The position numbers were made by a program, and so were the translations under genes. A stretch of 64,000 nucleotides of DNA from positions 64,001 to 128,000 of the forward strand of contig CBDDDG010000022.1 of NCBI GenBank assembly GCA_965226555.1, written 5' to 3'. Within the stretch, counting starts at the first letter, position 1, and each line of letters begins with the position of its first letter. Source of the stretch: Salinispira sp. (GTDB lineage Bacteria > Spirochaetota > Spirochaetia > DSM-27196 > Salinispiraceae). Shown here in pieces: positions 43,892 through 56,777 of the stretch. The notes beneath the pieces are model-generated. The model did not search any database, was not told where the DNA came from, and was given only the letters and a program-made list of their open reading frames with translations.

Positions 43892-45088
43892 TCAAACTAA
43901 GGTAATAAGATATCGAAGAAATTTTTTACTTGTCTCAATGTTGATGTCGTTGTTCGGTTTCAGAATAAGCTCACGTATCGTTTCTCCATGGAATTGAGCC
44001 ACTCCTCGTGAATTTCTCCCTGCCCAATGTTTACGAATATCTGTGGTATTGAGCAAATCAGTTTGAAATACCGATACTAATGCCTGACCAGCAATTTTAT
44101 TTGGGTAAATACCGATAAAATAAAACATGAAAACACTTTTCTCATTGGATAAAAACCTCAGGAACTTATCAATATTGTAGGCCTTGGGAGAAGATTTCAA
44201 AACCATTATCTTTGTTTTAACATCGATGGCTGTATGGTAATCATCAAAAAATTTTGTATAATCGCCTAATTCATTTTTTGTTTTAAACTGAAAGAGTTTT
44301 CCAACATGTTTTCTCAATTCGTCACGGAGTTTACCTCTCATATTCTCATCTTCTCCGATAACGAGATATTCAATTACCCTGCCCCTGATATTCACGTTTT
44401 CTATGAACACAGCTTTGAGAATTTCGTCCTTACAATTATTAACCCTTCTGTTTAATTCAGATGCAAGCGTAATATATTCATTTGATTTGGTGAACTGAAG
44501 AGTTCGTTCGGGGGCTGATAAAATACACGCCTTTTGAGTGGCAGAGACTTCAAACTTACTGCCTGATGGAACAATATTTGTTGTTGCTGCAACAAGACGA
44601 TTGAGAGTATCAGTAAAATTAATTTTCTGATGTATAGCAAAAAGTTTTTCAAAATTTTCCGGGGAATTTTTAAGTCCATTAAATTCTCTCATAATATCGG
44701 CACCATTAAAGCTCCCTCTGATGTTATCAATTCGTAAATCTTGTGAGCTATGGCTGATCTTTTGCAGAAATGTTGAATTTGCCATATAGAGTATGTTTTT
44801 ATTCGGTGTTACAAGACATACAATAAACGGACGTTCATCATATTTTCGCAGAGTCGAAAGGGACAAAACGGTATTCGAAAAACTGTTGGAGGCAGATACA
44901 CTAAAGCGCAGCGCAAAATGTTCTGAATAATATACTGTCCTGTCTCTGGTCAATTTGAATTGCTCTTGTACAGATTCAGCAAGTAATGCCTTATCTGCAA
45001 TGCCGTTCTTTCTTTTAATATATGCTACCAATGCTCTTAGATTACTATTTATGACTATTGGGAACCTCTGGAAACTCGAATTTTTCAT
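43892..45088 (-). CDS. Probable type II restriction endonuclease
   Basis: Immediately downstream of an MTase; PD-(D/E)XK-like E...LGDY...IDVKTK; low GC. Confidence 0.55.
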   Translation of the reverse strand: MKNSSFQRFPIVINSNLRALVAYIKRKNGIADKALLAESVQEQFKLTRDRTVYYSEHFALRFSVSASNSFSNTVLSLSTLRKYDERPFIVCLVTPNKNILYMANSTFLQKISHSSQDLRIDNIRGSFNGADIMREFNGLKNSPENFEKLFAIHQKINFTDTLNRLVAATTNIVPSGSKFEVSATQKACILSAPERTLQFTKSNEYITLASELNRRVNNCKDEILKAVFIENVNIRGRVIEYLVIGEDENMRGKLRDELRKHVGKLFQFKTKNELGDYTKFFDDYHTAIDVKTKIMVLKSSPKAYNIDKFLRFLSNEKSVFMFYFIGIYPNKIAGQALVSVFQTDLLNTTDIRKHWAGRNSRGVAQFHGETIRELILKPNNDINIETSKKFLRYLITLV

Positions 45089-45205
45089 GATTCATTGCGT
45101 AAAACAATGTTGTTTTAAGCTCAATCATGCGGTCACTGGTTAATTTTTTCTGCCAGATATTAGGTTTCCAGAGGTTCCCTATTACTCCTTTCCTGTCATA
45201 TGCAT

Positions 45206-46162
45206 TCATCTTCTCAGCGATCCGCTTTTCATCAGCTCCGCAATCGGGGCGGGCGAATTACGTTCACGGAACACTCCATCAGCATATCCCTGAATTGCGG
45301 AATCGCGCTCTGCCATGGCTAATCGCTTTTCGGTTAAGCAACAGTATTCCTCGCTCATTTCAATGCCAATAAATTTTCTCTTGAGCTTCTTTGCTGTAAC
45401 CGATGTTGTTCCGGAACCGACAAAGGGATCCAGCACCACATCGCCTTCATTTGAGGATGCGAGAATTGCCTTGGCCACAAGTTTTTCGGGCTTCTGGGTC
45501 GGGTGGTCAGTGTTTTCTGGCATTGACCAGAAGGGAATGGTAATATCTGTCCAGAAATTTGAAGGATGCGTTAATCTGAATTTGCCATTGCCATTTTCTG
45601 TCCAGTCCTTCGGTTTGCCGTTGACCGTGTACGGAGCAATGACTTTTCGCTGTAACTTCACCGCATGAACATTGAAGGTGTAATTGTCCGATACTGTTGC
45701 AAACCACATATCCTCCGCGCAATTCTTCCAGTTCCCCAAGGCGCCGCGCCCCTTCTCCCGCTCCCAGGTGATTCTGTTCCGTATCTTAAAATGCCTGTCT
45801 AAAACAGCAAAAATCTGCTGTGAACTCTTCCAGTCGCAGCACACATACATTGACGCAGTCAGCTTGAGCGTGTGCCGTATTGCGAGTATCCAGTTTTCAA
45901 AGGTTTTCTCATACCCATTGGCGGTTTGCGCGCGAAATCTGTTGCCGCCAAAGTTTTTATTCATATTATACGGCGGGTCAATAAAGAGCAGATCAACTGA
46001 AGACTCAGGCAATAAGGGCGCAATTTCGAATATATCGGCATGAATTGTCGTGTTGATACACTTGCCATTGAAGGCTTCTTTTGTCAACAATCGCTTTTTT
46101 AAGATAGCTATTTCGTCCTCTGTCAGATATGTTGTTCTATTGTTCTTTGCCCGTTCTTTCAT
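45206..46162 (-). CDS. Beta-class N4-cytosine/N6-adenine DNA methyltransferase
   Basis: DPPY precedes HPTQKP and LDPFVGSGTT. Confidence 0.93.
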   Translation of the reverse strand: MKERAKNNRTTYLTEDEIAILKKRLLTKEAFNGKCINTTIHADIFEIAPLLPESSVDLLFIDPPYNMNKNFGGNRFRAQTANGYEKTFENWILAIRHTLKLTASMYVCCDWKSSQQIFAVLDRHFKIRNRITWEREKGRGALGNWKNCAEDMWFATVSDNYTFNVHAVKLQRKVIAPYTVNGKPKDWTENGNGKFRLTHPSNFWTDITIPFWSMPENTDHPTQKPEKLVAKAILASSNEGDVVLDPFVGSGTTSVTAKKLKRKFIGIEMSEEYCCLTEKRLAMAERDSAIQGYADGVFRERNSPAPIAELMKSGSLRR

Positions 46163-48951
46163 GGTGATGACTTTAATACAGTATTGAGATACTGTCAAGT
46201 TCAATGACATGGAATATTAATATTTGAGATATCTCCATTTCATTTATTAAAAAAAACAAAGGTTCCCCCACCAGTAAAATGTGCTCTAAAGATCAGACAT
46301 CATATAGCATACCCTGAGGGTTACCTTCCAATATCGTCAAAGCTCTTATCCTATTTAAATGCGGGTGGGCAAATTGATTGCGGTAGCTGCGCAAGCAACC
46401 ATAGCAACTGGAATCGCACCCGCACCCACCTTCCACCCGCTCTTTTGATTTAGCCAGAACATTGCGAAAGATATCGACATCTTCTAGCTGTGCCACCAAT
46501 CCTGCCCCACCGGGAACATTATCATATAAAATGATCGCTATTTCATTCGGATTTTCGCCTTTAGCAATTGTCACATTCAAATCTCTATCTGGCACGCTCA
46601 ATGCTGCTGATGCTCCAAGCATAATTGAATAGGCAACAGAATATGCCTGCCATGGTTCGCAAAGTCCCGGAAACTGTAAACGCACTACATCGGTAACCAG
46701 CTCATGTCCCAATGAATATTTGCCCAATGCACATTCACAATCAGAACCCCAAGGAGTTTTATGTGATGAAGATTGTGGTTTCGTAAAGTGCGCGCCACAG
46801 GAGCGACAGATATAAAACCCCTGTTTTTTCTTGCCCTCACACAGAATAACCAAAGTACCAGGTGATGCTCTTGTTATTTTTATTTCATCAATCAATGTTG
46901 TTTGCGGCAATTCTTCATCCCTAAAACCATCGAAGAATGGTTGGGTAGTATAAAGGCGTTGAGTGCGCCTGTTTGGGATTTTTGGTTTCTTTTGCGCAAC
47001 GAATCCGAATATGGGAATGAGATATTTTTTGCTATTTTCTGATTGAGCGTCTTCTAATTTCTGAAAGTCATAAGCGTTATGGTAAGTGTAGTTTTGAATA
47101 GGACAATTTTTGCCTTTTACTATTTTAATGCCAGACGATACCCATTCTAATTTATTGGCAATTATTTTACTTCCAGCCGCATACTCAGCAATTGCTTGAG
47201 ATAAATCCCGCTGCAATGTAAGTTTATTGTTATCGGTTTCTAGTTCTACAACATCTACCGGAAAACCATACTTGGGAATGACTGCTTTACGGGAGAGAAA
47301 ATTTAATGCCGATTCACCAGAAATGGTGTCTATGCGTTTTTCTATGGCATCAGTCCCTTTGTTCATCGTAAAATGTTCTTGTCTCAATTCTTCCAATTTA
47401 TGATAATCCCCACATACTTCGCTTTCCACATTAGCAAGGCGGCTGTCAGGGCCTGTTATTTTGTCAATCCATGAATCATTGTCAATTCCCATTTTATTGT
47501 GCATGCTTTGAGGAATGATTGCGCGCAACGATCTTTTCAAATAATTATTGGTTTTACAGAATACAAACAGTTCAGATTTCGCAGCAGGATTCTCCCAATC
47601 GTGAATAAAGGATTTAACGTTCTTAAAGCGGTCTTCATTTTCCTTGAAAAAGGCAGATAAAACTGTGGCGACTACGTGTCGTAAAATAATTTTCTCGTTT
47701 GTTACTTGTAAGCGTGGCGGGTGTATTGTGCTGTTAATTATTCGCTCCTCCGGATTTTCATAGTGATAGAGATCATGAGGGTTACGACGGCAGTAGGTTA
47801 TTGCTAATCCTTGAGTATTTCGACGTCCAGCTCTTCCGACACGCTGCGTATAGTTAAAAGGCTCTGGAGGCACATTACGAAGAAAGGTAATTTCCAGATC
47901 GCCCAAATCAACACCAACCTCAAACGTAGTAGAAGAACTGAGCAGATGAATACTCCCCATTTTAAATTCATTTTGCCGTTCTTGAGCAACATTGCTACTA
48001 AGTTGAGCAGTGTGTTCTTCAGACCGCAGCGAATAGGGTAGTTCGGCATTTTCATCGCCATTGTTATATAATGCTTCCCACACACGATCCATAAGTTTTG
48101 TTGTTTCTTTTGTGTTTTTCTTCATCAGATAATTTACTGTTTGCGAGTAAGCGATAAAGAAAATGTTTTACAACAGCAGATTGAGCTCCTCCCCACTGAG
48201 ACACGTTTCGGGTGCTTCTTGGCTGTCCGTAGGTATACGCCCATTGCGGGTATGGAGAAAGTTTTTTCCAATTAGGTGTCTCTGCTTCTGTTGGTAATTC
48301 CATGGCGCGTCGCAAACGCATTTCGTTTAGGAGGTACATTAGCAGGTAATATAATTCATCATCGTTGAAGTTCCATGGAGGTTCCTGCAATGGTATTAAA
48401 TCATCCAATTTTATAAAATGTTCAGGCAGTGCCACAAACCACCGGACTAACCCTACGCCGCTGAGCGATAGCCTCTTTTCCTCCGTCAGGCTTTCCTGCA
48501 ATATTGATGTTAATATGTTCCGCCCTCTTGTTTCCTCTGTGTCATCACTTTTGAATAATCCCGCTTGCGCATATTGCTTGTATAATCTGCTTTTAAGGTC
48601 TTCAACGGATAAACCTTCTTCATTGACAGCTTCTGATCGAATGGCTCGAAGTAAAAAATTACGATCACGCAGTTTTTCGTAAGAATCTTGAGCGTACCAT
48701 GCAAAAAATGCGGCTCCTTGGCGACTGTCGGCAAAGGCCAGCACCTTGCGTCTGCCTTCGGGTAGTGACTCATGGAGGGCAGTAGCAATAACAGCATTAG
48801 GGCCGTCTGTCCCGTGTACAATTTCTTGCACAGGATCTCCAAAACTGCCTCGTTGATAGTCACAAACCTCACATTTCTCCAGTTGGTCAGGATTTTTTTC
48901 GTAAGCTTTGCATTTCCTGACTGATCTTGCTTCGAAAATTCGGACAATCCG

Positions 48952-49857
48952 CTAAGCAACACAACAGGATTCTCCTGCTGTTTTCAAAGCATAATTCATC
49001 GGACTCATATAGTCAAGAGAAGAATGAAGCCTCTCTCGGTTATACCAGTTGATGTATTCAAAAACTATCTTCCGCGCCTCCTGAAGGTTCTGAAACCTCG
49101 GCTTACCAAGCTCATTCTTCAGCGTGTGGAAAAAACTTTCCACAAAGGCATTATCGTAGCAATTCCCCCTTCTCGACATCGACTGGGTAATATGTAACAT
49201 TTCCAGTTTGTCTCGAATGCTCTGCGCGCAATACTGCGTTCCCTGATCTGAATGAAAGACCAAGCTATTCAACTCCCCGGGAGTTCTCCGTACGGCCTGT
49301 AACAGAGCCTTTTCCGTCTGTGTGCTCTCCATGGAATCACTGACATTCCAGCCCGTAATTTCCCGGGTATAGATGTCCAGAACCACAACAAGGTACGCAA
49401 ATCCTGCGCCGGCGGGCAGGTACGTGAGGTCCGATGCCCAGACCTCATTCGCTTTCGTAACCGTGGAGCTTTCAATGCGAAACACCCGCGGAGACTTCTT
49501 CTGGGATGGATTGCTCATTGTTGTTCGCGGGCGATATGCCTTCGTTCTCCCCGCATTGAGCCCCGATTCCCTCATAAGCCGGGCGACTCGGTTCCTCCCG
49601 ATTGCTTCACCATGAAGATGCAGCAGCCGGTGAATTCGGGGCGAACCGTAGCATCCCTTATTTTCAGTATACACACGCAGGATTTTACCCGTAAGCTCAT
49701 CATCCCTGCGGGTGTTTTTGGACGGTTCTCTCTTAAGCCAGTCATAGAATCCCGAGCTGGACACCTTCAGAAGTTTGCAGCATGGTGCAACAGCATGTCC
49801 GGTCTGCTTCAGCTGCTCAATTCCTCGATACTTCATTTCAGGCTCTCCTTTCTGCAA
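48952..49857 (-). CDS. IS3 transposase OrfB (DDE/rve)
   Basis: YGSPRI, WASDLTY, HSDQGTQY, GNCYDNAFVESFF, YNRERLHSSL. Confidence 0.95.
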   Translation of the reverse strand: MQKGEPEMKYRGIEQLKQTGHAVAPCCKLLKVSSSGFYDWLKREPSKNTRRDDELTGKILRVYTENKGCYGSPRIHRLLHLHGEAIGRNRVARLMRESGLNAGRTKAYRPRTTMSNPSQKKSPRVFRIESSTVTKANEVWASDLTYLPAGAGFAYLVVVLDIYTREITGWNVSDSMESTQTEKALLQAVRRTPGELNSLVFHSDQGTQYCAQSIRDKLEMLHITQSMSRRGNCYDNAFVESFFHTLKNELGKPRFQNLQEARKIVFEYINWYNRERLHSSLDYMSPMNYALKTAGESCCVA

Positions 49858-50123
49858 AAAAAAACCATTGCATCATTGAGTATTGCCACCGCCTTTTTCT
49901 CGGCGCGCAGTTCCTTTCTCAATCGTTTGTTCTCGGCCAGGGCTTCCTGAAGTTCCCGAAACTCGGGACCTTTCTGGTCGTTCCGAACCCATTTCGCGAG
50001 GGTATGATAACTTGCTATACCCAGCTTTTCCGTCGCCTGCTTCGTGCCAATTTCTTTGGCAAGCTCCACAGCCTGTTCCTTAAAATCCTCAGCATAGAAT
50101 TTTCTGACTTTCCGTGTTTCCAT
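49833..50123 (-). CDS. IS3 transposase OrfA (HTH + leucine zipper)
   Basis: EDFKEQAV...LGI...TLAKW, ENKRLRKEL; stop overlaps an OrfB ATG (ATGA); U9 run just upstream. Confidence 0.9.
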   Translation of the reverse strand: METRKVRKFYAEDFKEQAVELAKEIGTKQATEKLGIASYHTLAKWVRNDQKGPEFRELQEALAENKRLRKELRAEKKAVAILNDAMVFFCRKESLK

Positions 50124-51547
50124 AACACTCTCCTCTCCCTATAGTATCGTGCTTAGAAGAGTGTCCGTTAAATCGAAGCAAGATCATGACAAAAATTCTT
50201 GCTTCGCGGTTGCAACTACATTTTGGTTCAGATAAAGGATGCAATAATTCACCGCAACAACGGCATAATTCCAAATCTGTTGCGTCTGTTACGGGCAAAT
50301 AGTAATCTACCCCAAAATCTGTTTGACTCGGATCACGATTGGCTTCCACAAGTTTCCCGTTATTTTCTTTACCAACGTAATAGTGCTGTCCACATTCTCG
50401 ACAAAGGGCAATTTCCAGTGGCTTAGCTTTTCCATTGTCGCCTTTACGATTTAGTACTATAATGTCTTTGTTATTTTGATGAAGTAGGAATGCTCCTTCC
50501 AATGCGCGCAAAAACGCATGGAGTCGAGGGTGTTTTTTCGCTGGTATTGATTCACCAAAAGTAACGCCGGAATCAGAGAATGATTCTTCAAAGAGTTCCT
50601 GCGCAAAACCCGCAACAATTTTTTTATTATTGTCATTTTTGCTGGAGACAAGGGTGGCGCTTGTAGCGATACATCGAAAAGAATCTTTTTTTCCGCCATC
50701 GTACAATCGTTGTTTGAGGCGTCGAATTAACATGCCCATTTCCATGCCCTTGGTTCCACGGTACTGATGCGCTTCGTCAAGCACAATGAATTGCCAGTTG
50801 GCGCCTTTTCCGTTATCAAACAATGGACTATCATTTGGACGAATAAGTAGATATTCCAGCATTGAATAGTTGGTTAGCAAAATATGCGGAGGATTTGCCC
50901 GCATGTCCTTTCTAAAAATTAACTCTCCCGGATGAGGTTGCTGATCTGTTCCATTGCGGTACCGATTATTCTTATTCTCTGGTGTCTGCCCAATATATTG
51001 TCCAAACGTTGGCAAGAAGGAAGAATTATTTTCTTGTAATTTTTGACATATATCTCCAATCCGTTCGCGCTGATCATTTGCGAGAGCATTCATCGGATAT
51101 AGAATTAAAGCCCGAACTCCGGGATCGCTAAGCTTTCCATTCAAATGCTGCTTATATAACTCAAAAAAGATAGGGTAGAGAAAACACTCCGTTTTACCAC
51201 TGGCGGTGCCAGTTGCAATAACGGTATTTTCATTGTTCTCACACATGGCACGGATAGCATGTTCCTGATGAGAGTAGAGTTCCCTGTCAGCTAGAGCAGG
51301 AATAAGATGATTGGCTTCATTGCCAAAGTATTCTTGCGCAAGCCTGCGCGCATTTAATCCTTTCCTGAAGTCCTTTTGTTCTTCAGGGGTCACCTTCTTT
51401 AATAACTGATTCTCTTGCTCTAAGGCGGCTTGAAAAGATGCTCTCAGCGCCGGATCTTTGAAGAAAAATGAAGTTTTCAGGTAACTTTCATATCGACTAC
51501 GAACTTTTTCACAGATTTTATCAGGGGTGAGTACAGATTGGCTATTA

Positions 51548-53482
51548 TCATTGCTGCTCATTTGCGATCCTCACAATTTTGTCTACATTAACAAAATGAA
51601 TACTTTTTCTTCGTTTATCAACTGGCAAATACTTTAATTCTTTTTGCATCATTTCACCTTTAAGGGCTTGGGTTACTTCCCCCGCGCTAAAACCTTTGCC
51701 GTGTCTATAGCCCCAACTGCGTTTTACCATCGGAATCACTGAAGATGCAGGGTGAGCTATTTTAGGTAGTAAAATCTGAATTTCAGGTTGTGCAATCTGA
51801 ATGAGCTGCTGCACTTTGTCACCAATGATTGCCTTCAAATACTTACAATCATCCAGATTATCATATCTGAACTCTCGAAGAGGAATAGGGATCAGTGAAT
51901 ATCCCGTTTCATTTTGATTTTGGCGAGGATACCTCCTGCCCTGTTGATTATCCCATGCAATTTCAACTCTTTTAATATGGCGGGGTAGCCATAAGTGAAT
52001 TTCCGCATTAGCATCGCCATAGTTTTTAAACTTTTCAGGAGTCATTTGGAAACATGTGTCTTGCCAGTCTGCCGATTCGTTATTCATACACCACCAGATT
52101 CTGGGCAGGTGTAACGAAATCGTAACTTCATCGTTATTGGAGTTACATGTAAATATTTGCTTATCGTATGCTGCGTATGGCGCAACTTCAAATGCGTTCT
52201 CATTTTTTGTCATCAATTTACAGGTATTTTTTGCTGTCAAATCAATATTGTTTCCAATAAACTGAATTCTTGTTGAAGTATGTCCGCTTTTATCTGGTAG
52301 CAATATGGTATTTTCGACATATTCTCCTCCGTTTATTGTAATTTTCTCAAGGCCCTGTATATAGCGAAACGAAATGCTATCTTGCATTTTAATGTTTTCA
52401 TCGTAGACGCGAAGAAAGAACCGTCCTTGCCTCTGAGCCATAACATCTATAAGCTTTTGCTCGGGAAGTTTAATATTTTCTCCCCAGCCATCTGCTTTCT
52501 CTTCACCAACTCGCGCCCAGACAATGTTCTTTCCTGCTATAATCTGTGGCAGATTACCAACAAATAGCTCATTTTCATTATTTGTAAATAGACATTTTCC
52601 CTTTAGTTCTACGGCAATGGATGATGTCAGTGCAATAGGTTTACCCTCATCATCTCTAAATTCATAATTTTGCGTTGATGCATCTTTGTCAAGAAAATAA
52701 AAATGCGCCATAAATCGTTTATCACTACAAAATTCCGGTTCGACACGTATATTACTACCGATTCTTTCCCACTGTTGGGGAGCAATCACAATGAAATGTC
52801 CTTTGGTTAATGTGGAAATTTCACGTCCATCATCACTCCAGTCATTTTTCATTTTAAAAATAAGAGGTTTATTTTCTTTATATAACGTAATTTTGTCGCT
52901 ACTGCCATCAGTAAATATGGTTAACAAATTTTCTGTAAACGATGTTAATTGATATTCGTTATTTAGAGTGTTCAGGCAGCTACCGTTTTGCGTAATCTCC
53001 CTAATTTCCCTACTTTCATTTACCGATAGAAAAATACTCCAGCCAGTAGAAAGATTGCGACAGATAAATTCGGGTTTTGGTTTTATAAAAGAATTATCGC
53101 TTTTGTTCTTATTGTGCTTTTGATGTTTTTGCGTTCTTTTTCCAGGTGCCTTTATTGGACCGCGGTTTGAGTCAGTTTTCTCATTGTGAATGGGATTTTG
53201 AGGCAGCTGTACGGGATCAAGGGGAGGTTGGTGTTGGGTATTATCCGGTGGAGATATAATTTCTCGAGTTGGAGTAGCTGTAATGCCCCCATCTCCCGCT
53301 GTCTGGTTACTGTTAATACGATCATGTGATATTTCAGGTTCAATAGCAGGAGTAGTGGGCTTATTTCCGTTATCCCGGGAATCATTTTCAGCATCAGATG
53401 TCTCATGCATATTATCCTCTTTGGATAATAATTGTGTAATCCACCGTTTACAGAGATTGATTATTTTGCGAATCCAATTCAT
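51548..53482 (-). CDS. Helicase-associated hypothetical protein with C-terminal eL13-like domain
   Basis: 644 aa; overlaps the helicase start by 14 nt; C-terminus PMVKR..GYRHGKGFSAGE...PVDKRRKSIHFVNV. Confidence 0.75.
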   Translation of the reverse strand: MNWIRKIINLCKRWITQLLSKEDNMHETSDAENDSRDNGNKPTTPAIEPEISHDRINSNQTAGDGGITATPTREIISPPDNTQHQPPLDPVQLPQNPIHNEKTDSNRGPIKAPGKRTQKHQKHNKNKSDNSFIKPKPEFICRNLSTGWSIFLSVNESREIREITQNGSCLNTLNNEYQLTSFTENLLTIFTDGSSDKITLYKENKPLIFKMKNDWSDDGREISTLTKGHFIVIAPQQWERIGSNIRVEPEFCSDKRFMAHFYFLDKDASTQNYEFRDDEGKPIALTSSIAVELKGKCLFTNNENELFVGNLPQIIAGKNIVWARVGEEKADGWGENIKLPEQKLIDVMAQRQGRFFLRVYDENIKMQDSISFRYIQGLEKITINGGEYVENTILLPDKSGHTSTRIQFIGNNIDLTAKNTCKLMTKNENAFEVAPYAAYDKQIFTCNSNNDEVTISLHLPRIWWCMNNESADWQDTCFQMTPEKFKNYGDANAEIHLWLPRHIKRVEIAWDNQQGRRYPRQNQNETGYSLIPIPLREFRYDNLDDCKYLKAIIGDKVQQLIQIAQPEIQILLPKIAHPASSVIPMVKRSWGYRHGKGFSAGEVTQALKGEMMQKELKYLPVDKRRKSIHFVNVDKIVRIANEQQ

Positions 53483-53490
53483 TATGATTG

Positions 53491-53519
53491 ATAATAGTTT
53501 TAAAAATTTATGACGTCAA
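53491..53519 (-). promoter_or_regulatory. Sigma70 promoter of the eL13-like/helicase operon
   Basis: Minus strand TTGACG-17-TATTAT, 8 nt before the ATG. Confidence 0.55.
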
Positions 53520-53626: not shown

Positions 53627-54832
53627 ATGAGTAAATCAGCGTATGGGCAGCCAATTATTATTACAGAAGATGAAAAGCTTCTTAAGCCCCAGCAGCCTCC
53701 GAAGCCGGAGGAAGATGAGAAATTTCTGCAGGATCTGATTTTCAAACATGCCGATTGCCTGCCCGTATCGGAAATTGATGACGCCTACACCCCGCTGATC
53801 CCCGTTTGCAGGGAACTGAATACGCATGCCGGTCCCCTAGACATTCTGATGGCCACGCCTGCAGGCAAGCTCGTGATAATTGAAACCAAACTCTGGAGAA
53901 ATCCGGATGCCCGACGGAAGGTAGTTGCGCAAATCCTCGATTATGCGAAAGAACTTGCCCGGTGGTCTTATGAAGATTTATATCGGGAGATTAACAGAAA
54001 CCTGCAGACCTCAGGCAATCATCTCTATAATACGGTTACCGCCTCAGCAGGTGAAGCTTCAGCCCTCGATGAAGCTGCTTTTGTTGATGCTGTGAGCAGA
54101 AACCTCCAAAAAGGTGAATTTTTGCTGTTGCTGGTCGGAGATGGAATTCGGGAGGGCGCAGAAAGATTAACCGAATTTCTGTCAACTGCCGGTAATCTTG
54201 CCTTCACATTTGGCATGATTGAAGTTGCTTTTTTCAAGGCACCGGACATTGGCACTCTGATTATTCCCCGGGTAATAGCCCGCACAGTCGAAATTCAACG
54301 ATCAGTTGTTGAACTCCCTCCGGGACTGCAGCTCCGGGAAGTTGCCGATCAATTTGATACATCACTTTCTCCAGAACGAAAAAAGGAGAAAGAGTTTTAC
54401 AGTACTTTCTGGAGAGAATTTATCAATGGACTTTCACTTGATGATCCCGGACAGCCAATGCCGCATCCTTTAAATGCCGAGAACCAATATTTTTATCTGC
54501 CACCGCAGCCTCCAAAAAGGGTATGGATCAGCGCAGCTTTTATTCCGAGTAAGAAGCAGGTTAGTGTATATTTCACCTGTAGTACCATTCCGCCCGGGCC
54601 TGATATGGCTGAAAAACTGGAGTTTGAGAGGGATGAAATAGTTGCCGAACTTTCCAAACTCGGTGAGGGAATTTACTGGGATATGCCGAAAAGCGTCGGT
54701 GTCTACCGATCTGTTGATGATATATTTGCCCCGGAGAACCGGCAGATAATTCAGGACTTCTTTCAAACCTGGGTAAACCGGTTCATCAATGCCTTTAGGC
54801 CGAGACTAAAGCGGCTGTCTGAAGACAGATAA
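53627..54832 (+). CDS. PD-(D/E)XK (NucS-like) nuclease with DUF4268-like C-terminal domain
   Basis: E..LQ, GPLDIL...IIETK...VVAQILDYA; FYSTFW..F in the C-terminal domain. Confidence 0.7.
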   Translation: MSKSAYGQPIIITEDEKLLKPQQPPKPEEDEKFLQDLIFKHADCLPVSEIDDAYTPLIPVCRELNTHAGPLDILMATPAGKLVIIETKLWRNPDARRKVVAQILDYAKELARWSYEDLYREINRNLQTSGNHLYNTVTASAGEASALDEAAFVDAVSRNLQKGEFLLLLVGDGIREGAERLTEFLSTAGNLAFTFGMIEVAFFKAPDIGTLIIPRVIARTVEIQRSVVELPPGLQLREVADQFDTSLSPERKKEKEFYSTFWREFINGLSLDDPGQPMPHPLNAENQYFYLPPQPPKRVWISAAFIPSKKQVSVYFTCSTIPPGPDMAEKLEFERDEIVAELSKLGEGIYWDMPKSVGVYRSVDDIFAPENRQIIQDFFQTWVNRFINAFRPRLKRLSEDR

Positions 54833-54857: not shown

Positions 54858-55280
54858 TCAAACCCAGGTAAAGGTTCCATCGGCCTGGGGTTGTGAAAAG
54901 GGGTTGAAGGCGACCTCCCACAGGTATCCGTCGGGGTCGGAAAAGTATGCGGAGTATCCGCCCCAGAAGACCTTTTGGGGTTCTTTGACAATGTGCGCGC
55001 CAATTGCTCGCACATCTTCTATAACCTCATCAACCTCTGCTTCAGAACCAACATTGTAGGCCATGGTAAAACAGGGCGATGCCGCAGGAATCGGCACCCC
55101 GACATCCTCAGCCAGTCCAGTAAGCGGATAAAGCGACAACACAAAGGACTGCAAATTAAAAGCCACAATGTTTTCAGCGCCTTCCTCGGTCGCGACCTTC
55201 CATCCCAATTTTTCATAGAACACACGCGACCTCTGAAGATCGGCCACGCCCAATGTTATAATGCTCAATCGCTGTTCCAT
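54858..55280 (-). CDS. VOC/glyoxalase family protein
   Basis: ITLGVADL..SRVFYE, FWGGYSAYFSDPDGYLWEVA. Confidence 0.9.
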   Translation of the reverse strand: MEQRLSIITLGVADLQRSRVFYEKLGWKVATEEGAENIVAFNLQSFVLSLYPLTGLAEDVGVPIPAASPCFTMAYNVGSEAEVDEVIEDVRAIGAHIVKEPQKVFWGGYSAYFSDPDGYLWEVAFNPFSQPQADGTFTWV

Positions 55281-55454: not shown

Positions 55455-56653
55455 TCATCCGAGCGCGCGCAATTTTCGCATTAATTTCTCCAGGGAAACA
55501 ATGTGCGCATCGTTGCCAATGGGAAACTCGTCATCGCCGCCATAGACGACATACCTGCGCACGGCGCCAATGTCATCGCAAATCTGGTGAAAATATCTGT
55601 TCACCTTGGGAGCAAGCCCATATTTGACTTCCACAGCCCAAACATCCGCGTTCGGCATGGTTATGAGCAGATCAATTTCTGCGCCGGCGGCGCTGCGGTA
55701 GAAGTGGGTTTTTGCGAGGGAGGTAGGACTGAATGAATGTTTTCCACAACAAAACCTTCCCAGCTCTTGCCGATAATGGGGTGAGACAGCAGCGCATCGC
55801 CATTCCCAATGCTCAGCAGCCGGTGGAGCAGGCCGCTGTCGCGCACATAATAGCGCGGCGATTTCACCAGCCGTTTTTTAGCATTCCTGTGCCATGGTTC
55901 AATTCGCCGAAGCAGCAACAGATCGGTCAGAATGTCGATGTAACGGCTAACGGTCTTGTGGTCTGTTTCCAAATTCGCCCCCAGTTGCGAAACATTCACC
56001 GGCTCGCCCTGAAAATGGGCAAGCATTGTCCATAAACGTCTCAGCCGGACAGCGGGAACGCGAAACCCCAGCTGCGGCACATCGCGCTCCACATAGGTCC
56101 GAATTAAATTTTCCAGCCATTCCATGGCTGTCGCGTCAGTATCGGCAAGATAACTATCGGGAAATCCTCCCCGCAGCCACAGACGCTGAACATGATTCTG
56201 AGATTCGCCAATATCCAGCTTCATTTGAGAATCGCCGGTCTCCAGAACATTAAGCCCCGTCAGTTCAAGATAGCTGATGCGGCCGGCAAGGCTTTCTGAC
56301 GATTGCCGCAATACCTCCATGGAGGCAGAGCCCAACAGCAAAAATTGAGCAGCGCTGCGTCCGTCCTGCCGATTCCGGTCGATAATGCCGCGCAGAATCC
56401 TGAAAATTTCAGGAAACTGCTGTATTTCGTCCAGAATAATGAGCTTTTCGCGCCGCGAATGAAAAAAAGCAATTGGATCGCTCAATTTCAGTGTGTCTTC
56501 TGGAGATTCTAAATCGAGATACAGAGCGCTCATATCGCGCTCCAGAGATCGGGCAAGTGTTGTCTTACCCACCTGGCGCGCGCCAAGCAGGGCAACCGCA
56601 GGCACTCGCGCAATGTGTTTCCTGAGCCTGTCGCCCATTAACCGTTCCAACAT
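55455..56653 (-). CDS. AAA_14 ATPase + DUF4143 protein, one frameshift near 55715 (probably sequencing error)
   Basis: GARQVGKTT, LDEIQ, ESLAGR, RGGFP, GKSWEG; the other frame continues FYRSAAGAEIDL...AVEVK. Confidence 0.85.
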
Positions 56654-56777
56654 ACCGGTATAGTAGGCGATACATGCCAAAATTACAAGGCCTCAGTACG
56701 TTTTACCGTGTAATTTGGGAATTCGATGCCCAAATTGCACGGTAAAGGTGAAATGTATTGGTTTTGTTATTGGTCTG

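Follow-up and report, generated by a model that had tools for sequence, protein, structure and literature searches.

We analysed a window of 64,000 nucleotides from Salinispira sp. (GCA_965226555.1, contig CBDDDG010000022.1, positions 64,001 to 128,000), in which two reverse-strand genes form a pair resembling the Druantia defence systems. The pair consists of a short protein in the DruH position, here called the partner, and a helicase of the YprA/DUF1998 type. An initial annotation had proposed an undescribed defence system at this locus, and the 644-amino-acid (aa) open reading frame (ORF) to which it pointed is present and intact in the ORF list (51548..53482, minus strand), with the C-terminus it reported and a stop that overlaps the helicase start by 14 nt. 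Three regions of the partner, all on the minus strand, can be distinguished. The N-terminal 135 aa (53078..53482) comprise a short basic/hydrophobic start and a Pro-rich, poorly conserved linker (14 Pro); residues 136–566 (51785..53077) form a conserved acidic core with an isoelectric point (pI) of 5.5; and residues 583–639 (51566..51736), recognised by profile matches and motifs, form a basic, eL13-like tail (pI 10.2 for residues 578–644). Mean pairwise identity was 24% for residues 26–135 and 50% for the core, and the tail, at 55%, was conserved to match the core. The core is probably an immunoglobulin (Ig)-like array, although its match to an immunoglobulin, the Ig domain of CEA, was weak (E = 0.35). 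Residues 130–644 found 254 homologues at E ≤ 0.001, the best 120 of which (119 non-self) were taken on, and a whole-protein profile found 1462 representatives at E ≤ 1e-30. By itself, the window partner had no Pfam match at E ≤ 1 and no PADLOC match, and core and tail queries of the ESM Atlas gave no usable match. A match of the core profile to one eL14 chain (E = 0.0023) was rejected as chance, as no other eL14 chain scored.

The helicase lies in three minus-strand pieces that carry DEAD, Helicase_C and MZB domains. The predicted DUF1998 helicase overlapped by the partner was thus recovered, while the intact ~1350-aa ORF expected for it was not. The N-terminal piece (50187..51561; Pfam DEAD/RecA1, YprA/DruE-like, PADLOC DruE at E ~1e-64) is 58–67% identical to intact relatives. 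It is separated from the rest by a 1265-bp IS3-family element (OrfA/OrfB; 48922..50186, minus strand), which has inverted ends of 37 bp and is flanked by a 4-bp target duplication (48918–48921 and 50187–50190). The middle piece (48064..48921) shows a frameshift near 48112 followed by a loss of ~74 aa, including a Cys-rich module found in loci L001, L006 and L027. The C-terminal piece (46293..48125) contains Helicase_C and MZB/DUF1998, with no nuclease domain after MZB. Both IS3 junctions were crossed by contigs of two sequencing runs of one sample (X1 and X2), and a contig of run X4, from a second study, joined the helicase flanks without the element. The X2 contig has one base fewer at 48112 and no frameshift, and retains the ~74-aa gap; the frameshift is therefore probably an assembly error and was dropped as firm evidence of decay. 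Because the helicase is split by IS3 and lacks the ~74 aa, this copy is probably dead and the module inactive in the window's genome (G000). The same IS3 is present there in 11 full-length copies at ≥97.9% identity, a recent expansion, and another copy apparently interrupts a second DEAD/YprA-like helicase gene there (G000:C21:15164-17303; L072:7164-9304).

Profile searches bore out the proposed relationship of the tail to L13e. Residues 588–635 of the window partner match NCBIfam PRK12277 (archaeal L13e) at E = 1.4e-5, with 24.6 bits against a curated cut-off of 96, and so fall below the cut-off for a stand-alone eL13 ribosomal protein. With the last 80 aa as a phmmer query, the top Protein Data Bank (PDB) match was an eL13 chain (9e6q_AH, E = 0.0057), and Pfam L13e (PF01294) was matched by 91 of the 119 partner homologues at E ≤ 0.05. 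A family profile built from 82 hand-picked tail-bearing members was searched against PDB sequences; the best 60 of its 94 matches were all eL13 chains, the archaeal chain first (E = 7.2e-12) and eukaryotic ones from 1.4e-7. Common to the tail and eL13 (PF01294; archaeal short form NF008914; PDB 9e6q_AH) are G-[RK]-G-F-S-x-x-E and D-x-R-R...N over ~50 aa, and G-F-S-x-x-E and D-x-R-R were invariant in 36 aligned sequences of tails and short eL13 proteins. Judged on these profiles and motifs, homology of the tail to eL13 is sound and exceeds a chance match. Unlike the ribosomal protein, the tail is fused to a defence-type bacterial protein, and it ends no more than 15 aa from the stop in 217 of 219 tail-bearing proteins. 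The fused tails are 45% identical among themselves and form a group of their own. They share 35% identity with stand-alone bacterial short forms and 38% with archaeal-type short forms, so that identity does not settle the donor. L13e is counted among the non-ubiquitous archaeal ribosomal proteins by Yutin et al. (PMC3353972).

Coupling of the partner to a Druantia-side DUF1998 helicase, as first suggested, was found well beyond this window. A GTDB scan with the core motif returned 29 loci, from metagenome-assembled genomes of many phyla, and in 28 of them a YprA/DUF1998 helicase of ~1400 aa lies directly downstream of the partner; at the 29th, the contig ends inside the partner. These helicases (24 intact, one cut by a contig end, three broken) are mostly 53–67% identical to the window pieces, and 21 of the 28 partner–helicase junctions have an 8-nt start/stop overlap. 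Six further loci came from metagenomes, with the helicase seen in four and two ending too early; L059 probably duplicates L020, and L060 and L061 probably duplicate each other. No third gene was common to more than four of the 29 loci. The module is rare and unevenly distributed, although it reaches many phyla: of 401 genomes from the window's phylum one had the core, and of 251 from another phylum one had the tail. Searches of IMG/VR, INPHARED phages and plasmids revealed neither core nor tail, the phage and viral ones being of low sensitivity. Among the neighbours scanned, a subset of 372 ORFs, defence genes occurred near several loci, namely restriction–modification (R-M) genes, PglZ, DrmA/B and PDC-S68. 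PIN-domain genes were observed just 5' of the partner in three loci (L016:8597-9022, L018:8740-9165, L022:8895-9383), and a PIN domain is fused to the partner N-terminus in proteins P0114 and P0118.

The suggestion that the partner had recruited an eL13 domain stands as regards homology and needs modification as regards uniqueness, since eL13 is one of several interchangeable tails. Of the 28 complete partners from the core-motif scan, 22 carry it, as do 219 of 260 non-redundant core-bearing proteins (41 without), the latter share being biased upward since a profile that includes the tail was used in part to collect these proteins. Other proteins end in uS17 (L017, E = 2e-29, above the curated cut-off), uS5 (P0173, E = 5e-28), bS6 (P0051, E = 6e-7; weakly in P0009) or the NusA C-terminal repeat (P0108, E = 2e-7), and one carries NusB in front of eL13 (P0084, E = 3e-33). 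An N-terminal RpoD accompanies a degenerate tail in two short partners (L028, E = 4e-142; L064, by eye), which L063 matches in size and tail. RpoD also occupies the C-terminus of two of the eight long partners described below (L087 and L088), so that both forms of the partner capture cargo. These sigma fusions lie at L087:2366-6400, L088:322-4464, L028:7583-11656 and L064:9893-13942, and the PADLOC label MzaA that they attract rests on the sigma part only. One non-eL13 end is a permease fusion, and several ends are short or unrecognisable. The tails of L013, L024, P0198 and P0222, which had no library match, appear similar to a winged-helix HARE-HTH/RNA-polymerase-delta domain. By their profile matches, the identified alternative cargoes are all ribosome or RNA-polymerase proteins, the permease fusion apart, and eL13 is the commonest of the interchangeable tails and no fixed part. 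A spacer of 60–140 aa, absent from the window partner, precedes the tail in 166 of the 219 tail-bearing proteins; it is probably Ig-like and shows matches to 47 repeats in a malectin/I-set protein of 4314 aa. An insertion of ~65 aa separates the two tail motifs in some members (L016:11381-11764, L018:11339-11728; P0089, P0117, P0119), and a sequence that resembles it by eye makes up the whole tail of P0043 and P0045.

The origin of the core was traced through larger helicase partners. It matched L071, a 1268-aa protein 5' of a related helicase, at E = 9.8e-5 over 295 columns. Relatives of L071 were present in 6 of 301 genomes searched, and all seven loci fetched for them encode a 1200–1380-aa partner directly 5' of a helicase; the helicases of the long-partner loci are 42–45% identical to the N-terminal piece in the window. 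In a profile–profile comparison (hhalign), the core was colinear with residues ~273–714 of the long partners (probability 94.7%, E = 6.1e-8, 378 columns). On this colinear alignment, the short partner is the middle of a DruH-sized (~1200–1380 aa) protein, with the N- and C-terminal parts gone, and its inferred ancestor would be a ~1200-aa DruH-sized partner that lost both. The system had also been proposed as undescribed: the PADLOC scan confirmed that the partner matches no DruH or DruF profile, while its core proved to be the trimmed middle of longer partners and no new fold family. A Clostridium-type family of 1069-aa partners was rejected as a relative, with no core match and only 2% against the long partners. 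In the long partners H-G-G-I-P is invariant near residue 130, about where Escherichia coli DruH (here L032, the protein of PDB 9tud) has E135-G-G-L-P, a likeness seen by eye only and unsupported by hhalign, PADLOC, PDB searches and a motif-window comparison (0.1%). One report (PMC13192584) states that G136A/G137A in E. coli DruH abolishes defence. No H-G-G-I-P-type motif was found in the 260 short partners. Directly 5' of four of the eight long partners (L071, L082, L084 and L085) lies a PglX-like methyltransferase, which hints at a three-gene form.

The window and related helicases combine a superfamily 2 (SF2) core with a C-terminal MZB (DUF1998) and had DruE as their best PADLOC model; in the PDB, the ~2000–2100-aa helicases 9tu7 (top) and 9wae ranked ahead of YprA (6znp). 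A tree of 26 chosen rows (IQ-TREE, SH-aLRT supports, no named III-B reference) placed 11 short-partner helicases, including the window N-terminal piece, in one clade (SH-aLRT 100). That clade joins the long-partner helicases and two further sequences (SH-aLRT 99), separately from E. coli III-A DruE. Every complete sequence in this combined group ends 25–40 aa after MZB and lacks PLD nuclease domains. Bell et al. (10.1101/2025.09.15.676423) described a mostly nuclease-less 'type III-like' branch of Druantia, and the short-partner helicases would fit it, on a placement taken from a tree without a named III-B sequence. Type III-B or 'type III-like' systems, such as DruH–DruE of Mycobacterium smegmatis, likewise have two overlapping genes, partner then YprA/DUF1998 helicase, and no nuclease after MZB. 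The M. smegmatis proteins measure 1132 and 1667 aa (PMC13316683), and the long-partner loci (1200–1380 and 1630–1670 aa) equal that pair in size. The short partner differs in being about half as long, without N- and C-terminal regions and with a ribosome- or RNA-polymerase-domain end, beside a helicase of ~1400 aa. Type III-A (DruH–DruE of E. coli and Pseudomonas aeruginosa; PDB 9tud, 9tu7) is alike in gene order and in its SF2 plus MZB helicase, with 31% identity between the window type and E. coli in the RecA1 region, but its DruE carries a PLD nuclease and the partner here has no DruH profile match. Types I, II and IV differ by further conserved accessory genes (DruA-D, DruM/F/G/L), and DruF/G/M had no match among 45 proteins scanned, a subset of neighbours. 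ARMADA (Bell et al., 10.1101/2025.09.15.676423) has a YprA helicase of the same larger clade, and the PglX-like gene beside half of the long partners recalls it; the short-partner loci have no Vsr nuclease and no BrxHII or PglX gene in common, which places them outside ARMADA.

Taken together, these features suggest that the tail is likely an interchangeable recognition module of a candidate anti-phage system. We tentatively favour, at somewhat under an even chance, a Druantia type III-like two-gene module in which the eL13-like tail binds exposed nucleic acid of the invader and helps to load or switch on a nuclease-less helicase. The short partner would keep the scaffold, a small basic module having replaced the lost C-terminal region, and the tail would take over recognition, in which the Ig5/C-terminal interface has a part in E. 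coli DruH. Once bound to nucleic acid, the partner would load or activate the helicase, which may then move 3'-5' and unwind or strip replication or transcription intermediates with no cutting, cleavage falling to other nucleases, for example neighbouring R-M enzymes. According to a recent preprint, characterised type III DruE dimers load on exposed single-stranded DNA (ssDNA) and unwind it 3'-5' (10.64898/2026.05.13.724758). Another presents DruH as an Ig array flanked by N- and C-terminal domains and as a 3'-5' exonuclease whose C-terminal domain docks on DruE (10.64898/2026.05.13.724313). For E. coli DruH, ATP-inhibited binding of ssDNA at the Ig5/C-terminal interface has also been reported (10.64898/2026.05.12.722862), and DruH has further been described as a protein sensor (PMC13192584).

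Several observations weigh against this account. Protein binding is the more familiar role of NusA-C and bS6, and the tail of the RpoD-bearing short variants has lost GFS and RR. Sequence gave no link to characterised DruH (PADLOC; hhalign 0.3% and 0.7%), the long partners had no 9tud match in the PDB search, and, besides E. coli DruH, the other four of five large helicase partners gave no core match. The helicase tree was a quick one with long branches, and many neighbourhoods consist of housekeeping genes and are not defence islands. Furthermore, the N-terminal region absent from the short partner is described as essential in E. coli DruH (PMC13192584), and the absent C-terminal domain is the one through which DruH contacts DruE (10.64898/2026.05.13.724313).

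Among other explanations, the best placed, if unlikely, is that the tail serves as an integrated decoy, mimicking host translation or transcription proteins that phage proteins attack or hijack, such that binding of a phage protein triggers the helicase. This accounts better for the bacterial cargoes: the identified alternative tails (uS5, uS17, bS6, NusB, NusA C-terminal repeat, RpoD) are all ribosome or RNA-polymerase proteins, and RpoD was captured by short and long partners at opposite ends. Nevertheless, the dominant tail, eL13 (22 of 28), has no host counterpart, as the family profile finds only the partner in G000, and low-sensitivity searches of phage and viral collections revealed no eL13-like gene. 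Less probable again is a tether, by which the tail docks the complex on ribosomal RNA (rRNA), ribosomes or transcription complexes and the helicase acts on the gene-expression machinery or R-loops, stalling infected cells. The retained eL13 signature residues and the origin of all identified cargoes in ribosomes or RNA polymerase speak for such docking; against it, bacterial rRNA has no known eL13 site, and two preprints describe the characterised DruE proteins as DNA helicases able to clear phage with no toxicity (10.64898/2026.05.13.724758, 10.64898/2026.05.13.724313). It seems improbable that the tail is just a passenger, tolerated at a permissive C-terminus that captures small genes while the core does all the work. 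This idea would suit the 41 of 260 core-bearing proteins without an eL13 tail and the short or unrecognisable ends, but a passenger would hardly be as conserved as the core across many phyla, lie so regularly near the stop (217 of 219) or belong, one permease fusion apart, to a single functional class. The poorest candidate is a mobile MrfA/YprA-like helicase for DNA repair or element maintenance with an accessory subunit, which would fit the missing nuclease domain, the repair family of YprA/MrfA (PDB 6znp match) and the housekeeping neighbours at many loci, but is countered by DruE scores far above those of the YprA/SngC models and by a distribution that is patchy (core 1/401, tail 1/251 genomes) yet reaches many phyla.

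The surroundings of the pair are as the initial annotation had them, with an R-M-like pair and a PD-(D/E)XK-type gene in AT-rich DNA. A type II methyltransferase and restriction endonuclease pair (MTase II, REase II; 43892..46210, minus strand) lies on one side and a divergent NucS/PDC-S11-like nuclease gene (53627..54832, plus strand) on the other; neither is conserved beside the module across related loci, and both were ruled out as parts of the system. The guanine-plus-cytosine content is ~40% at 44–48 kb and 50–54 kb and 52–61% at 36–44 kb. A glyoxalase-family gene (54858-55280) and an AAA_14/DUF4143 ATPase (55661-56680) flank the island, and an N6/N4 methyltransferase of the window had >25 tblastn matches in G000. 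Just 5' of the partner, a minus-strand sigma70-like promoter match (53491..53519, 10/12) is a match to the consensus only.

L13e was initially taken to be absent from bacterial ribosomes; eL13-like genes do also stand alone in some bacteria. Among the 401 genomes of the window's phylum, three have tail-only ORFs of 66–72 aa, in contexts that differ and are not ribosomal: by eye, one lies near molybdenum-cofactor-like genes (L035:1489-1698, minus strand, G005) and one beside a ferredoxin-like gene (L037:1474-1692, plus strand, G047), and the third is near gyrA (L036:1489-1689, plus strand, G021). The contig that bears the gyrA-linked gene is 449 kb long. Their nearest relatives among the matches listed comprised a single close match and 20 short L13e proteins, of which three are named archaeal. 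No eL13-like gene was found in the phage, viral and plasmid collections.

No description of an L13e-tailed module was found in the literature, supplements not being covered; Table S2 of Bell et al. could list these domains. The sensing target of DruH-position proteins is disputed among 2026 preprints, which propose an exonuclease, an ssDNA binder and a protein sensor. The short-partner branch represents a natural deletion series in this respect, retaining only the middle of the partner, a nuclease-less helicase and one varying small tail, and tail swaps within it could tell nucleic-acid from phage-protein recognition. The locus also records the transfer of an archaeal/eukaryotic ribosomal-protein domain into bacteria, where it has long been retained. 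The broadest reading, which we consider rather unlikely, is of an immune receptor in bacteria whose cassette slot has taken up proteins of the ribosome and of transcription again and again as sensing domains, together with an unrecognised stand-alone bacterial eL13-like family. If true, such a receptor would be a prokaryotic counterpart of integrated-domain receptors, with one cassette derived from the archaeal/eukaryotic ribosome.

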